Shown here: piece by piece, positions 10,688 to 39,785 of the stretch
Layout of the letters: every line of letters starts with the position of its first letter
Numbering within the stretch: position 1 is the first letter of the stretch
Sequence record: PZ445526.1
Reading direction: 5' to 3' (one strand)
DNA length: 64,000 bases
Source: a phage
Program-made: the position numbers and the translations under genes
Notes under the pieces: model-generated
Databases searched by the model: none
What the model saw: the letters and a program-made list of their open reading frames with translations, nothing else
Told to the model about the DNA's origin: nothing

Positions 10688-11158
10688 TTAATCATGTTTC
10701 CACACCCCATCGGTATTTGACCAAAGTCGCTGATTATCTGATCCTCGCCACAGCTTTTTAGTCGGAAGATTTTTCTCATACTTCCCATCAATAATAACAT
10801 CAACATATTTAAGCATTTCTAGTTGTTTAATATCTTCAAACTTATATCCTGTCCACAACCAAATGCTTTTATTGGGATAAAGATTTTTTACTGTTTGAAC
10901 AATGCAATGAACAACATCTCGATTGTCAGGATAGAGAGGGTCTCCTCCAGTTATAGTTAATCCTTCTATATAATCATTATTCAAACATTCAATCAATTGT
11001 TCTAGTGTTTCACCAGTGAATGGAATACCATTTCTAGCATTCCATGTTGATTTATTATAACACCCTTCGCATTTATGCAAACAACCTGTAACGAAAAGAA
11101 CGACCCTGCATCCAGGGCCATTCACAAAATCACAAGGATAAAATCTATCATAATTCAT
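10688..11158 (-). CDS. nrdG: anaerobic ribonucleotide reductase activating protein (radical SAM)
   Basis: 156 aa; radical-SAM cysteine motif CLHKCEGC; stop overlaps nrdD. Confidence 0.9.
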   Translation of the reverse strand: MNYDRFYPCDFVNGPGCRVVLFVTGCLHKCEGCYNKSTWNARNGIPFTGETLEQLIECLNNDYIEGLTITGGDPLYPDNRDVVHCIVQTVKNLYPNKSIWLWTGYKFEDIKQLEMLKYVDVIIDGKYEKNLPTKKLWRGSDNQRLWSNTDGVWKHD

Positions 11159-12972
11159 TGGTGTTTAACCCTATGCATGATTTCTTTATTTTTACCGAGA
11201 TTAAATCCGCGTTCGTTCGGATTTCCCAAATAACCACATGTTCTTCTTATTGTGTTCATCTTTTTAGGATCAGTTTCTCCACAAATAGAACAAACAAATC
11301 CGTTTTCAGTAGGAGTCATTTCATGGGTACTTCCACATGTAAAACATTTATCTACTGGCATATTAACACCAAAATAATCTAAATGTTGTGCAGCATAATC
11401 CCATACGGCCTCAAGACCCTTTAAGTTATTTTTCATATCAGGAAGTTCAACATAAGAAATGTGACCACCTGTCGCAATGAAATGATATGGTGCTTCACGA
11501 GAAATCTTTTCAAACGGAGTAATATTTTCTTCTACTGAAACATGGAAACTGTTAGTGTACCAGCCTTTATCGGTAACATCTTTTACGCTTCCATATTTTT
11601 CTGTATCGAGTTTACAGAAGCGATAACAAAGGTTTTCAGCAGGAGTCGAATATAAACTAAAAGCAAATCCAGTTCTTTCAGTCCACTGTTTAAGATGAGC
11701 ATTCATTTTAGTTAAAATTTCCTGTCCAATATCACGACCGACAAGAATATTCAATTCATGAATACCAATGTATCCTAGGGACACTGAACTTCTACCGTTT
11801 TTAAATAACTCAATTACGTCGTCATCAGGTTTAAGACGAACCCCGAATGCACCTTCTTGGTAAAGAATAGGAGCAACAGTCGCTTTAACTCCTTTTAAGG
11901 AACTAATTCTACACATCAAAGCTTCAAAACACAAATCCATTCGTTCATTGAATAATTCAACAAATTTATGTTCATTGAACTGTGTTCCAATATAAGAATC
12001 TAACGCGATGCGAGGAAGATTCAGTGTTACAACACCAAGATTATTACGTCCATCAAGAATTTCATTACCAGTCGAATCTTTCCATACGCTCAAGAAACTA
12101 CGGCAACCCATTGGAGAAACAGGAACAGATGAACCAGTGATAGCTTTATTATTCTTAGCTGAAATAATATCAGGATACATCCTTTTGCTTGCGCACTCTA
12201 GAGCAAGCTGCTTAATATCATAGTTCGGATCGTCTTTATAAAGATTAACGCCTTCTTCGACGAACATAACAAGCTTAGGAAAAATAGGAGTTATCCCATC
12301 ACGACCGAGACCTTTAATACGATTTTTCAGAATTGCTTTCTGAATCATTCGTTCAGTCCAGTCAGTTCCCGTACCAAATGTAATTGTTACAAAAGGAGTC
12401 TGTCCGTTTGAACTAAAGAGAGTATTTACTTCATATTCATAAGCTTGGAATGCATCGTATACGTCTTTTTCTGTTTTAGATTGAGCATAATTCAACGCAT
12501 CAGCGATTTGCCATTTTTCTGCATCCTCAATATGTTTTGCATAGGTGCGTTTAACATAAGGAGAAAGTACTTTATCTACATTCGCAAAAGTCGTTCCGCC
12601 GTATTGGTGAGAAGCAACCTGTGCAGTAATTTGTGCCATAATTGCAGTAGCAACACCGATTGATTTAGGAGTTTCAATCTGTGCATTACCAAGCTTAAAT
12701 CCATTCTCAAGCATTCCTTTTAAATCTACTAAACAACAATTAGTAAATGGAAGAGCAGGGGAATAATCAATATCGTGGAAATGGATAATTCCGCTTTCAT
12801 GCGCTTTCATAATAAAAGACGGGACCATATTTTTGGCAATGTGTTTAGACACAATACCAGCCATAAGGTCCCGTTGAGTTGGAAAAACACGAGAATCTTT
12901 ATTAGCATTCTCGTTTAAAAGGTCTTTATTAGTTTTATGAATCAATCCTTCAATTTCTTTTTCAATTGTCAT
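11155..12972 (-). CDS. nrdD: anaerobic ribonucleoside-triphosphate reductase (class III), uninterrupted
   Basis: 605 aa continuous ORF; C-terminal glycyl-radical motif RRTCGYLG and zinc ribbon CFTCGS...CSICG. Confidence 0.95.
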   Translation of the reverse strand: MTIEKEIEGLIHKTNKDLLNENANKDSRVFPTQRDLMAGIVSKHIAKNMVPSFIMKAHESGIIHFHDIDYSPALPFTNCCLVDLKGMLENGFKLGNAQIETPKSIGVATAIMAQITAQVASHQYGGTTFANVDKVLSPYVKRTYAKHIEDAEKWQIADALNYAQSKTEKDVYDAFQAYEYEVNTLFSSNGQTPFVTITFGTGTDWTERMIQKAILKNRIKGLGRDGITPIFPKLVMFVEEGVNLYKDDPNYDIKQLALECASKRMYPDIISAKNNKAITGSSVPVSPMGCRSFLSVWKDSTGNEILDGRNNLGVVTLNLPRIALDSYIGTQFNEHKFVELFNERMDLCFEALMCRISSLKGVKATVAPILYQEGAFGVRLKPDDDVIELFKNGRSSVSLGYIGIHELNILVGRDIGQEILTKMNAHLKQWTERTGFAFSLYSTPAENLCYRFCKLDTEKYGSVKDVTDKGWYTNSFHVSVEENITPFEKISREAPYHFIATGGHISYVELPDMKNNLKGLEAVWDYAAQHLDYFGVNMPVDKCFTCGSTHEMTPTENGFVCSICGETDPKKMNTIRRTCGYLGNPNERGFNLGKNKEIMHRVKHQ

Positions 12973-22041: not shown

Positions 22042-22071
22042 ATAGTACCATAAAGCTTTATGCTTGTAAAC
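22042..22071 (-). promoter_or_regulatory. T4 early promoter cassette
   Basis: Minus strand GTTTACAAGCATAAAGCTTTATGGTACTATACAACTATCAAC, A/T-rich upstream, GGAGAATAAAATG RBS. Confidence 0.55.
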
Positions 22072-22097
22072 CGTTTTGTGAAAAAATTTTGAAATAA

Positions 22098-22120
22098 AAA
22101 GGGAGCCCGAAGGCTCCCTA
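22098..22120 (-). terminator. rho-independent terminator
   Basis: GGGAGCC-UUCG-GGCUCCC hairpin followed by UUUUUAUUUC, immediately after the 22121 stop. Confidence 0.65.
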
Positions 22121-30291: not shown

Positions 30292-30557
30292 TAGTATTTT
30301 TCCTCTGGTTGGAACACTGCGCGACAAGCCCACATACTGGCTTCTTTGAGTTTCGTTTTAGCAATAGTTAACTGATCGAGGCTTTCGGCATAATTCTTCG
30401 CGAATTCACAATCTTCACAATTATCTAGTGCTTCCCAGAATTCGTCATATAAAGCATCAAAGATAAGTCCTAAACGAACTTCAGCGTCTTTGATAGCATT
30501 CACTTTACCGATTTTCTCTTCAGTATGTGGCTTATAACCCTTAATATCTTCAATCAT
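30291..30557 (-). CDS. hypothetical protein; by synteny the T4 vs.4 (Acb2 cyclic-dinucleotide sponge) position, unverified
   Basis: 88 aa from ATG ([18 protein letters not shown]...) behind RBS GAGGAAG; assignment is positional only. Confidence 0.3.
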
Positions 30558-30771
30558 ATTTGACTTCCTCACCAGTGCATAAATCGTATTCAACTAAACG
30601 AATAGGTTCATGAATGCCATATCCCTGAACAGAAATTTCTGTCGTAGGATAAATTCCATCAATATCACCCATATTCAACGCTTCATTAAATTGCTGTTCG
30701 CCTGAATTACTAAACCACTCGGCGAAAGCATTTAGCACATCTTCAGAACCTTCAATAATTATCTTTGCCAT
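30550..30771 (-). CDS. hypothetical protein
   Basis: 73 aa acidic ORF. Confidence 0.4.
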   Translation of the reverse strand: MAKIIIEGSEDVLNAFAEWFSNSGEQQFNEALNMGDIDGIYPTTEISVQGYGIHEPIRLVEYDLCTGEEVKYD

Positions 30772-31133
30772 TACAAACTTTCAGTAAAGGTACGAGCGAT
30801 AACGTCGCGCTGCTGTTCCGGAGTCAGAGAGTTAAAGCGAACTGCATAACCGGATACACGGATGGTCAGCTGCGGATATTTTTCCGGATGCTTAACTGCA
30901 TCTTCCAGAGTTTCGCGACGCAGAACGTTAACGTTCAGGTGTTGACCACCTTCAATTTTAACTGTAGGTTGTGGCTCAATTTCAATTTCACGGGCATGCA
31001 AACCGTAGAAAATTTCTGGGTCTACAAAAGAGTCCTCTTTAAAGGTTTTAGAGACAATAATTCGTGCTTGAATACCATCTTCAAAATAAATAGTACCTTT
31101 ATGTGTGCCTTCAAGAATTTGATATGCTTTCAT
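30771..31133 (-). CDS. autonomous glycyl-radical cofactor (GrcA/YfiD-like; T4 Y06I-like)
   Basis: 120 aa; C-terminal glycyl-radical motif [15 protein letters not shown]; C-terminal ~60 codons visibly GC-rich. Confidence 0.8.
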
Positions 31134-31140
31134 ATAAACC

Positions 31141-31470
31141 TCAATTAGAAAATAAATTTATCCAAGATTGTTCTTTAATTAAAAATGGCTCAGAATCATA
31201 TGCCATTAAACTTTGCGTAATTAATCCTTTAAAAGGTCCATCAATAAATTCCATGGTAAAATATGGAATTTTATTCATTAGCCGTGCATTAGGAGCAGTG
31301 CACAAAACTCTGCATCCTTTGAATACGCCTTTTTGTAATTTGTATTGCTTGGGATAAAATTCGCTTAAAATGTTATTTTTTGCCAAAATTTCAAAATGAT
31401 TCACCAATTTATTTTTAATAGTTTTTGGCGAAAAATAAAGATATTCGAAAAGCTGAGTGTCTGTCATCAT
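31141..31470 (-). CDS. hypothetical protein
   Basis: 109 aa from ATG ([13 protein letters not shown]...); ATGA overlap with upstream gene. Confidence 0.4.
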
Positions 31471-38247: not shown

Positions 38248-38277
38248 TAAAAAGCCCCAACCTTTCGGTCAGGGCTA
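38248..38277 (-). terminator. rho-independent terminator closing the tRNA/stable-RNA unit
   Basis: 10-bp stem (AGCCCUGACC/GGUUGGGGCU with two G-U pairs), GAAA tetraloop, then UUUUU. Confidence 0.65.
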
Positions 38278-38587
38278 AGCCTTGCGGCAACCTTGTCGGG
38301 GTTCCACCTGCTAAGGCAAGTGTTTGTACGAAACGCCGGGACTTGAACCCGGTTATTAAGTAGTTGACGCTACTCAATATTTTTAAAAGGCCATATCTCG
38401 ACCATATCCGAACGTTCCGTCAAAAACGCTACTCGGCTTACGGCAAAGATATTTCCTCGAATCGATAATTCGGTGCGCCGTTTCTGCTGTGATGTAAGGG
38501 GATATTAACAAATCGTAAAGATTTATTAAGACCAGTCCTTACTCAGGGAACATCAGTCCGACGACTTACCGGTAGCGACCCGGTTTC
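38278..38587 (-). ncRNA. candidate structured stable RNA(s), possibly counterparts of T4 species 1/2 RNAs
   Basis: No ORF of 60 aa or more on either strand; tRNA-like T-arm CCGGGUUCAAGUCCCGG at 38336-38352 with possible acceptor pairing CGGAACG/CGUUUCG; adjacent to tRNA cluster and followed by strong terminator. Confidence 0.4.
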
Positions 38588-38938: not shown

Positions 38939-38956
38939 ATTTTCCTCACTTATAAT

Positions 38957-39032
38957 TGGTCGAGGCAGTAGGGATCGAACCTACGACCCAGGACTTAGAA
39001 GGTCCTTGCTCTTCCTTCTGAGCTATGCCTCG
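38957..39032 (-). tRNA. tRNA-Arg (anticodon UCU)
   Basis: Hand-folded cloverleaf: acceptor CGAGGCA/UGCCUCG, anticodon loop CUUCUAA, T-loop GGUUCGAUCC, encoded CCA. Confidence 0.8.
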
Positions 39033-39036
39033 GATT

Positions 39037-39111
39037 TGGCGGACGTGATAGGATTCGAACCTATAACCAATCGCTTAACAGGCGATCGCTCTGCCATTGA
39101 GCTACACATCC
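39037..39111 (-). tRNA. tRNA-Asn (anticodon GUU)
   Basis: Acceptor GGAUGUG/CACGUCC, anticodon stem AUCGC/GCGAU with loop CUGUUAA, T-loop GGUUCGAAUCC, encoded CCA. Confidence 0.75.
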
Positions 39112-39115
39112 AAAT

Positions 39116-39202
39116 TGGTGGGGAGTGATGGAGTCGAACCACCCGAGTCGCAATGACAATGGATTTACAGTCCACACCGCTACCTCTACGGGATAACTCC
39201 CC
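39116..39202 (-). tRNA. tRNA-Tyr (anticodon GUA), long variable arm
   Basis: Acceptor GGGGAGU/ACUCCCC, anticodon loop CUGUAAA, long extra arm, T-loop GGUUCGACUCC, encoded CCA. Confidence 0.7.
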
Positions 39203-39212
39203 CAAATTAATT

Positions 39213-39287
39213 TGGTGGCCCTGGGTGGAATTGAACCACCATCTGGCGATTATGAGTCGCTTGCTTGAACCTTCCAGCTACAGGGCC
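39213..39287 (-). tRNA. tRNA with CAU anticodon (T4 tRNA-Ile counterpart, or Met)
   Basis: Acceptor GGCCCUG/CAGGGCC, anticodon loop CUCAUAA, T-loop GGUUCAAUUCC, encoded CCA; same position as T4 tRNA-Ile. Confidence 0.7.
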
Positions 39288-39288
39288 T

Positions 39289-39364
39289 TGGTGCTGATTG
39301 ACGGAATCGAACCGCCGACCTTCTCATTACAAGTGAGTTGCTCTACCTACTGAGCTAAATCAGC
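39289..39364 (-). tRNA. tRNA-Thr (anticodon UGU)
   Basis: Acceptor GCUGAUU/AAUCAGC, anticodon loop CUUGUAA, T-loop GGUUCGAUUCC, encoded CCA. Confidence 0.75.
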
Positions 39365-39369
39365 AAAAC

Positions 39370-39459
39370 TGGCGGAGGCGATAGGATTTGAACCTATGAG
39401 TCGCCGGAGCGACTGCCGGTTTTCAAGACCGGTGCATTAAACCACTCTGCCACGCCTCC
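39370..39459 (-). tRNA. tRNA-Ser (anticodon UGA), long variable arm
   Basis: Acceptor GGAGGCG/CGCCUCC, anticodon stem CCGGU/ACCGG with loop CUUGAAA, long extra arm, encoded CCA. Confidence 0.75.
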
Positions 39460-39461
39460 AG

Positions 39462-39535
39462 TCTCCGTGGCAGGATTTGAACCTACGACATTCTGCTCCC
39501 AAAGCAGACGCTCTACCAAACTGAGCTACACGGAG
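39462..39535 (-). tRNA. tRNA-Pro (anticodon UGG), CCA not encoded
   Basis: Acceptor CUCCGUG/CACGGAG, anticodon stem UCUGC/GCAGA with loop UUUGGGA; 3' end reads ...GAGACUGG. Confidence 0.75.
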
Positions 39536-39545
39536 TAAATTAAAT

Positions 39546-39619
<74 letters not shown>

Positions 39620-39624
39620 AAATT

Positions 39625-39711
39625 TGGTGCGAGAAGTGGGACTCGAACCCACAAGGAAATCATTCCGCAGCATTTTAAGTGCTGTGCCTTTACCAATTTG
39701 ACCATTCTCGC
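39625..39711 (-). tRNA. tRNA-Leu (anticodon UAA), long variable arm
   Basis: Acceptor GCGAGAA/UUCUCGC, anticodon stem CAGCA/UGCUG with loop CUUAAAA, long extra arm, encoded CCA. Confidence 0.75.
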
Positions 39712-39712
39712 G

Positions 39713-39785
39713 CTGGGAATAAAGGACTCGAACCTTTGCATCCTGGAATCAAAATCCAGTGCCTTACCAACTTGGCTAATTCCCA
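39713..39785 (-). tRNA. tRNA-Gln (anticodon UUG), CCA not encoded
   Basis: Acceptor UGGGAAU/AUUCCCA, anticodon stem CUGGA/UCCAG with loop UUUUGAU, T-loop GGUUCGAGUCC. Confidence 0.75.

Follow-up and report, generated by a model that had tools for sequence, protein, structure and literature searches.

Why does one gene of an AT-rich T-even phage end in DNA that is, base for base, that of its bacterial host? The question arises in PZ445526.1, from which we analysed a stretch of 64,000 nucleotides (nt), hereafter the window, with positions counted from its first letter. An open reading frame (ORF) in this window encodes the ortholog of T4 Vs.6, also called Y06I, a homolog of the bacterial protein GrcA (YfiD), the spare part of pyruvate formate-lyase (PFL). 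Our data make it very probable that this vs.6 ortholog, which carries a PFL-type glycyl-radical domain, has had its 3′ 178 bp replaced from host grcA, and that the same segment is recurrently re-convertible in its relatives.

The evidence begins with the alignment of the gene to its host counterpart. Direct alignment matched gene nt 179-356 to the chromosomal grcA of K-12-type E. coli at 178/178 bases, whereas the DNA 5′ of nt 179 is essentially unrelated to it. Just beyond this tract come two synonymous differences, at nt 357 and 358, where the phage reads AGT TTG and the host AGC CTG. In a codon-guided alignment the 3′ half of the gene, or tail (codons 61-120), agrees with E. coli grcA at 178/180 nt (98.9%) and 60/60 residues, against 82/174 nt (47%) and 18/58 residues (31%) for the 5′ half, or head (codons 1-59; Fisher p = 7e-33 for the nucleotide identities). 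The change in identity along the gene is thus abrupt and includes synonymous sites, as in psbA-type recombination. Where the amino acid is identical, the codon is also that of E. coli at 58/60 positions in the tail and at 6/17 in the head. Other genera (Pseudotevenvirus, Slopekvirus, Karamvirus, T5) have an almost unchanged protein tail, yet their codons agree with those of E. coli at between 23/48 and 33/59 such positions, about 50-56% for unconverted phages.

Searches of complete E. coli genomes gave the same boundary. A 185-bp blastn match, annotated as grcA, was present in 5,426/5,426 genomes, and none of these genomes produced a match 5′ of gene position 179. When the whole window was compared with E. 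coli genomes by megablast, the tract was the only stretch found in every genome; the remaining matches were to the tRNA region in some records, plus one of 51 bp in a single genome, and the last 14 kb of the window gave no matches. The 51-bp match (22053-22103, 94.3%) falls at an unannotated spot in E. coli strain BE104 and is the sole match in the first 25 kb.

The tract is also set apart by its composition. Its guanine plus cytosine (GC) content is 0.494, close to that of the E. coli grcA tail (0.49), compared with 0.343 in the 5′ half of the gene and a window mean of 0.350. This places it in the top 0.74% among all 178-nt windows of the 64 kb (z = 3.2), and GC at third codon positions (GC3) is 0.42 in the 3′ half vs 0.20 in the 5′ half. 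The tract therefore forms a compositional patch resembling the donor genome, a further feature of psbA-type recombination. The original prediction, made from the letters of the window, had described a C-terminal half equal to E. coli GrcA residue for residue behind a diverged N-terminal half, had called the 3′ half GC-rich against an AT-rich phage background, and had read the two together as recent gene conversion from the host. Our measurements bear this out: the protein ends exactly as quoted there, BLASTN-level identity is far higher in the 3′ half than in the 5′ half, GC is elevated on measurement, and the identical bases include synonymous sites, have host-like composition and lie inside the allele diversity of E. 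coli.

The only other stretches of comparably high GC in the window lie at 38.2-39.6 kb (38252-38445 and 38943-39586). Ten tRNA genes (Arg, Asn, Tyr, Met, Thr, Ser, Pro, Gly, Leu and Gln) occupy 38957-39785 on the minus strand, and account both for the GC-rich 38943-39586 and for the secondary megablast matches to E. coli records, for example one of 90.5% to tRNA-Tyr on an E. coli O111:H8 plasmid record. The stretch at 38252-38445 lies about 500 bp outside the ARAGORN-called tRNA genes, upstream of them, and the tRNA cluster does not explain it.

Converted and unconverted phage lineages

We compared the phage copies with a host panel of 136 grcA sequences containing 105 distinct 3′ parts, drawn from 80 species (genome scan), E. 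coli alleles and metagenomic alleles. The 3′ 186 nt of the window gene are 98.4% identical to E. coli grcA, 96.8% to a cryptic Escherichia species and at most 90.3% to other species; they lie closer to E. coli grcA than Citrobacter grcA does (about 92% in this stretch). The phage copies themselves fall into two classes. Over nt 181-339 every copy from Tequatrovirus, Mosigvirus and Jiaodavirus reaches an identity of 96.9% or more to some host allele, and the exact runs to host alleles among the 105 distinct 3′ parts measure 56-178 nt. Copies from every other phage lineage are at most 87.4% identical to any host allele, with exact runs of at most 56 nt. This unconverted class, as examined in Karamvirus, Pseudotevenvirus, Slopekvirus, T5-like and jumbo phages, has nearly the same protein tail, and where that tail is identical or nearly identical the DNA identity is 63-87%.

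Protein identity alone proves nothing in this comparison, because the tail is nearly invariant in all phage and bacterial homologs. It is the match to the host at synonymous sites that argues for transfer rather than conservation. As read from the sequences, the direction of this transfer is host to phage, because the tract is nearest to E. coli grcA, its composition is host-like and each phage genus has the tract of its own host genus. As in psbA-type cases the donor can be identified, and the unconverted phage lineages serve as the outgroup that resolves direction. Host grcA, for its part, appears to evolve as one vertically inherited unit, because its head and tail diverge congruently: between E. 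coli and Citrobacter they are 88.9% and 91.9% identical, respectively.

Three further observations concern the edges of these classes. A separate phage group, comprising a 91-kb IMG/VR contig (L113) and its relatives (L111-L116), encodes a GrcA-like protein of 130-137 residues. Against Haemophilus-type grcA alleles (L085, L090) its gene shows an exact run of 56 nt and is 86% identical in the core, perhaps the trace of an older or partial conversion by Pasteurellaceae host DNA. The Slopekvirus Klebsiella phages L009 and L011 are unconverted in their DNA (about 85-87% to any host allele), but their protein carries the Klebsiella-type L77/E81 (LLDAVEH) where E. coli phages have E/K. This hints at selection or protein-level matching to the host, or else at an old, decayed conversion. 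On the host side, a record titled 'Vagococcus sp. WN89Y' (L043) has an enterobacterial-type grcA that falls in a 90%-identity protein cluster of Klebsiella/Raoultella GrcA, and is probably a mislabelled or contaminated assembly.

Recurrence with different donors

The clearest evidence that the segment can be replaced more than once comes from Jiaodavirus. The 3′ part of Klebsiella phage KP1 has a GC content of 0.54, and was just 84-88% identical to our first host panel, which held one genome per species for the best 80 species, K. pneumoniae not among them. A metagenome scan with a wobble-degenerate pattern for this variant tail gave 60 loci, of which 59 were analysed, with 28 distinct 3′ parts; two of these were Jiaodavirus-type phage copies (L193 and L189) and most others were host-type genes. 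Two host alleles are relevant here. Allele A, on 21 contigs, encodes exactly the GrcA of K. pneumoniae, and allele B exactly that of Raoultella ornithinolytica; the two differ at 14 sites within nt 181-338. As shown in Table 1, phage copies side with one or the other.

Table 1. Mismatches of Jiaodavirus-type vs.6 copies to two host grcA alleles over gene nt 181-338
Copy	Source	Mismatches to allele A	Mismatches to allele B	Remark
L193	metagenome	0	14	158/158 identical to allele A
Nispero	cultured	3	13	
KP1	cultured	4	15	
L189	metagenome	12	2	
ATCCa	cultured	13	3	
Ra_O-2	cultured, Raoultella phage	7	8	

L189 and ATCCa have the allele-B state at 12/12 informative sites in nt 219-315 and the allele-A state at 186 and 189, as if a second patch had been set inside an earlier one. 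In the 178-nt head both depart from L193 at just 2-3 positions, and L193, L189 and KP1 end in the same 3′ sequence. The DNA surrounding the gene differs by about 3% between L193 and L189, against 12/97 nt within nt 219-315. Tracts that match allele A at 95-99% occur in 106 records of the phage collection, and 3 records reach that level with allele B. In this group as in the E. coli phages, codon 60 (ATT, Ile) is still that of the phage and host identity sets in with codon 61. With E. coli-type tracts in Tequatrovirus and Mosigvirus, and both A-type and B-type tracts in Jiaodavirus, the vs.6 segment has been replaced by DNA of three donors or more, namely E. coli, Klebsiella and Raoultella. Separate events that draw on different donors are again a property of psbA-type recombination.

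The allele of the tract does not always equal the isolation host, as two of these haplotypes illustrate. ATCCa (L245) was isolated on K. pneumoniae, has a Raoultella-type tract and carries M at residue 77 (LMDAVEH, as in Enterobacter/Kluyvera hosts), and Ra_O-2 (L246) has a mixed A/B haplotype.

Among the phages of E. coli we compared 20 Tequatrovirus/Mosigvirus copies of vs.6. An IMG/VR scan gave about 7 close T4-type copies, and further ones came from the phage collection, which contains about 650 close relatives; of some 1,500 matching phage records, 906 span 80% or more of the gene and 649 reach an identity of 90% or higher. The head sequences of the first 11 copies split into two clades separated by 11 fixed differences over 177 nt, and over the 178 nt of the tract the clades show none (p = 4e-4); at third positions only, the counts are 7/59 in the head vs 0/59 in the tract (p = 0.013). 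The two clades, 16-21 nt apart in the head, hold in all 20 copies, with head differences from the window of 16-20 nt. Copies of both clades sit as close as 0-1 nt to a present-day E. coli allele, and over the 20 copies the tract differs from the nearest E. coli allele at 0-7 positions (median about 3). The tract must therefore be younger than the split of the phage lineages, or have been homogenised since.

The 5′ junction, between nt 178 and 179, is common to 20/20 copies, and the 3′ limit of host identity is graded among relatives, at nt 347, 350, 353 or 356. Haplotypes at the 3′ end are incongruent with those of the head, which shows that recombination within vs.6 is frequent. Site 219 is polymorphic both in the phages and in E. 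coli, being C in K-12 and O157 and T in BL21 and O104; 3,039/5,426 E. coli genomes carry one of the two T variants tested. The window tract is exactly the K-12-type allele, and that of T4 is the BL21 (B-strain) allele plus a private change giving H73. This change in T4 (L003), at nt 218, is a non-synonymous R73H that is absent from the 19 other close relatives and from the host alleles examined. At nt 354, 18/20 E. coli-phage copies have G (GAG), and the window, T4 and E. coli have A.

These data suggest a route by which the mosaic could have formed. The ancestral vs.6 would have been a diverged homolog of grcA, AT-rich along its full length and old in the T4-like phages, since the gene is present and syntenic across T4-like genera (see also Nolan et al. 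2006, PMC1524935). Strong constraint at the protein level would have kept the DNA of the radical domain similar enough to host grcA for recombination. During infection, homologous (initially homeologous) recombination between the phage gene and host DNA could then have occurred, comparable to marker rescue; T4 is proficient at recombining with homologous non-phage DNA, as in marker rescue from plasmids. The tract would start exactly at codon 61 because usable homology begins there, the N-terminal half being too diverged, and its end would fall within the last few codons of vs.6. Once installed it would provide about 170 bp of perfect homology, with which later infections could re-convert the segment. 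Such easy re-conversion would explain why relatives hold tracts of different alleles and species (E. coli K-12- and B-type, K. pneumoniae-type, Raoultella-type).

Several points weigh against this account, in whole or in part. T4 degrades host DNA and carries modified cytosine, which might limit the proposed exchange with the host at the locus. Conversion alters very little protein, because host GrcA tails across Enterobacteriaceae differ at just two residues (E/K in E. coli, L/E in Klebsiella-type tails), although converted phages do carry those of their own host. The protein scores 153.3 bits against TIGR04365 (spare_glycyl; InterPro IPR011140), below the NCBIfam cutoff of 170 for the GrcA equivalog, because its N-terminal half is diverged, and its function is carried over from the T4 protein. 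The C/T difference at site 219 is a single transition, and one phage has G there; for repeated conversion in E. coli phages we therefore treat it as suggestive and not as proof. With a single 5′ junction common to all 20 copies, repeated conversion from the host is, in the E. coli phages alone, inseparable from a founding event combined with phage-phage recombination.

That alternative, a single founding conversion or chimeric gene in the ancestor of the E. coli T-even phages that spread through Tequatrovirus and Mosigvirus solely by phage-phage recombination, is the most substantial of those we weighed, and we consider it rather unlikely. It would account for the shared junction, for tract differences that are mostly private third-position changes, as expected of drift after one event, and for the incongruence of tract and head haplotypes, which argues for abundant phage-phage recombination. 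A common junction is, however, also expected from repeated conversion where homology ends at that point, and the Jiaodavirus junction falls at the same codon. Moreover, the E. coli allele matched at site 219 varies from phage to phage, the tracts end at graded 3′ positions, and the sister case of Jiaodavirus involves at least two independent host donors, so the process can recur. On sequence evidence, the E. coli-phage data favour repeated conversion over a single founding event.

The remaining explanations dispense with transfer into the phage altogether. Sequence identity is in itself symmetric as to direction, and E. coli might in principle have taken the 3′ half of grcA from a T-even phage; the congruent divergence of E. 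coli grcA head and tail from other Enterobacteriaceae, a tract whose GC and GC3 fit the host and not the phage, a match present in all 5,426 E. coli genomes, and phage genera that each hold the tract of their own host genus make this very improbable. The view that there was no transfer, and that very strong purifying selection alone keeps the 3′ halves alike, draws on the near invariance of the protein tail over all phage and host homologs. It is extremely improbable given the synonymous identity, with same-codon use well above that of the other phages, and given that synonymous sites in the Klebsiella phages track the alleles of Klebsiella or Raoultella instead. Sharp junctions would likewise arise from a chimeric assembly or from contamination with host DNA, but this in-frame mosaic is also present in the reference genome of T4 and in hundreds of phages sequenced independently, and the junctions lie in frame within an intact 120-codon ORF with phage-type ends on both sides; the chance of such an artefact is negligible. 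Conversion from host grcA is the reading we retain. The tract data are compatible with its being selected and with its being a neutral by-product. That the vs.6 tract is a continuously rewritten copy of the recent host's grcA, perhaps selected to match the local PFL and PFL-AE, is a tentative extension that we regard as possible while leaning against it.

The vs.6 locus and the partner of its product

Features of the gene are collected in Table 2. The ORF lies in T4-type surroundings (thymidine kinase, vs, regB, vs.3-vs.8, denV and internal head proteins) and is syntenic with T4 vs.6, between vs.7 and vs.5; the T4 copy is at AF158101 63557-63919. The encoded protein is identical to T4 Vs.6/Y06I at 119/120 residues, with R73 in the window and H73 in T4. 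The window phage is a Tequatrovirus but not T4, and its closest catalogued phage is 96-97% identical over 8 kb.

Table 2. Features of the vs.6 gene in the window
Feature	Position	Strand	Basis or remark
vs.6/Y06I ortholog, complete coding sequence	30771..31133	minus	ATG start, 120 residues + TAA; ORF list, synteny, Pfam
Phage-type 5′ part, gene nt 1-178, codons 1-60	30956..31133	minus	AT-rich, diverged GrcA-like N-terminal half
Host-derived conversion tract, gene nt 179-356	30778..30955	minus	encodes the entire PFL-like glycyl-radical domain
Glycyl-radical motif RVSGY, codons 92-96	30846..30860	minus	alignment to PFL 697-759 and 6owr
Gly95, equivalent to PFL Gly734	30849-30851	minus	
Phage-type 3′ end AGT TTG TAA, gene nt 357-363	30771..30777	minus	differs from host AGC CTG
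Shine-Dalgarno-like GAGG, 6 nt 5′ of ATG	31139..31142	minus	read from sequence: ...CTAATTGAGGTTTATATG

The stop codon of the vs.6 ortholog overlaps the ATG of the downstream vs.5 (ORF 30550..30771; TAATG). The site was compared with that of the relatives L006 and L193. In Jiaodavirus the phage sequence GAGGCACTATAATG is retained at the 3′ end, with GAGG about 10 nt before the vs.5 ATG, and tracts always end before the last codons; the retained phage-type 3′ end of vs.6 may be the ribosome-binding site of the overlapping vs.5, which could be why phages have kept it. A scan for promoters and terminators at the locus gave no signal above shuffled expectation. One terminator-like stem (30937-30951) falls within the tract, on the non-coding strand, and we regard it as fortuitous. 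In Escherichia phage vB_EcoM_JE01 (L182) the vs.6 head has an in-frame 6-nt deletion at codons ~53-54, just 5′ of the junction, giving a protein of 118 residues, which suggests that a change of length is tolerated in the linker before the radical domain.

The product resembles GrcA chiefly in its C-terminal half. Pfam PF01228 (Gly_radical) matches residues 61-101 with 66.8 bits (cutoff 22.2), and in a search of the PDB the protein aligned with 6owr, the structure of GrcA (E = 8.6e-42), and with residues 697-759 of PFL (E = 5e-26). Like GrcA/YfiD (about 14 kDa) it is a stand-alone protein, of 120 residues, that is essentially a C-terminal glycyl-radical domain, with the PFL-type radical loop RVSGYAV and a tail like PFL ~697-759. 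Hidden Markov model and BLASTP alignments to GrcA begin at residues 20-22, and the 18/58 identical residues of the N-terminal half go with a DNA identity (47%) that is near random. The vs.6 protein is a distinct phage subfamily, presumably GrcA-like in action, whose C-terminal domain is shared with GrcA by descent via recombination.

T4 Y06I, like E. coli YfiD/GrcA, reportedly receives a radical from PFL-AE and then forms a complex with O2-cleaved PFL, restoring its activity (Wagner et al. 2001, BBRC 285:456, as described in PMC8683613). The original prediction had correctly named such a GrcA homolog in T4, and the window ORF proves to be its ortholog. By analogy with the nearly identical T4 protein, the window protein would have the same role as a spare part for PFL. 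Host PFL-AE would place the radical on the vs.6 domain and the protein would dock onto O2-cleaved PFL, as in the published T4 biochemistry; plausibly, this would keep fermentative energy metabolism going in the micro-aerobic infected cell after shutoff of host gene expression.

The prediction had also raised the possibility that the protein serves as a spare radical domain for the phage NrdD, pointing to nrdD about 18 kb away. The distance holds: nrdD lies at 11155..12972 on the minus strand, 17.8 kb from vs.6, and its product matches NF006732 with 909 bits. The proposed role, in addition to or instead of that for PFL, did not find support, and we consider it very improbable. Both proteins do contain a Pfam Gly_radical domain, NrdD is likewise O2-sensitive, and spare parts for further glycyl-radical enzymes are called conceivable in a review (PMC8683613); from the Pfam match alone, Nolan et al. 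(2006, PMC1524935) suggested a role of vs.6 in nucleotide metabolism. However, BLASTP of the vs.6 protein against the window NrdD gave no significant similarity (E = 4.9), and the PDB search returned no NrdD chain at E ≤ 1, the domain matching PFL instead. The NrdD loop is RRTCGYLG and follows a four-Cys zinc ribbon, whereas vs.6 has RVSGYAV without any Cys; the two have in common just the minimal R-x-x-G-Y core, and the vs.6 radical domain is unlike the C-terminus of a class III ribonucleotide reductase. A distance of 17.8 kb in a 170-kb phage genome amounts to no linkage. Finally, the radical domain has repeatedly been overwritten with host grcA, whose product is the partner of host PFL and PFL-AE. 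A domain that time and again takes on the sequence of the host's spare part for PFL appears to evolve as a partner of host PFL and PFL-AE.

Precedents and implications

The gene and its function are already known, and the phenomenon has a precedent in cyanophage psbA/psbD. T4 Vs.6/Y06I occupies the same locus, has the same length and also holds a host-derived tract; the T4 gene differs from that of the window at two tract nt (218 and 219) and one head nt. E. coli GrcA (YfiD; 6owr, TIGR04365) shares the C-terminal 60 residues, the 178 bp of identical DNA, the RVSGYAV loop and the reported activity, namely rescue of PFL after activation by PFL-AE (reported for T4 Y06I). It differs in that the N-terminal half of the window protein is 31% identical and 7 residues shorter, and in that vs.6 is phage-encoded and expressed from phage signals. 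For cyanophage psbA/psbD, intragenic recombination between host and phage with patchy %G+C has been described (Sullivan et al. 2006, PMC1484495; Zeidner 2005). There too an auxiliary metabolic gene of T4-like phages has swapped segments with the host copy and shows host-specific clustering. The vs.6 signal is much sharper, however, with exact runs of 155-178 bp over one defined domain, a 5′ junction set by the limit of homology and evident transfer solely from host to phage, and it occurs in enterobacterial T-even phages, model phage T4 included.

A laboratory parallel is found in marker rescue and plasmid recombination with T4, as used in insertion-substitution vectors and CRISPR-assisted T4 editing. 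In both settings short homologous non-phage DNA is recombined into the T4 genome by phage machinery; the donors are plasmids in the laboratory, in contrast to a putative host-chromosome donor in nature for vs.6. The literature searched yielded the functional papers and Nolan et al. (2006) but no account of the DNA-level mosaic of vs.6 or of its host-specific recurrence, and an earlier mention is possible. In most accounts T4, the reference lytic phage, trades very little DNA with its host.

The gene itself is ordinary, yet it holds an unusually clean natural record of recombination between lytic phage and host in the best-studied phage group. Tracts of about 160-180 bp in vs.6 are natural evidence that recombination between T-even phages and the host chromosome leaves lasting marks, and vs.6/grcA offers a simple, experimentally tractable locus at which to measure phage-host exchange. 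That the working domain stays identical to the PFL spare part of the host speaks for a function in host fermentative metabolism over one in nucleotide reduction. If the tract is indeed continuously rewritten, a strictly lytic phage that degrades host DNA would routinely recombine with the host chromosome in nature, and the tract would be an allele-resolution record of the recent host, usable for assigning hosts to T-even phages in metagenomes. This suggests a possible sequence-based indicator of recent host for many therapeutic and environmental phages.

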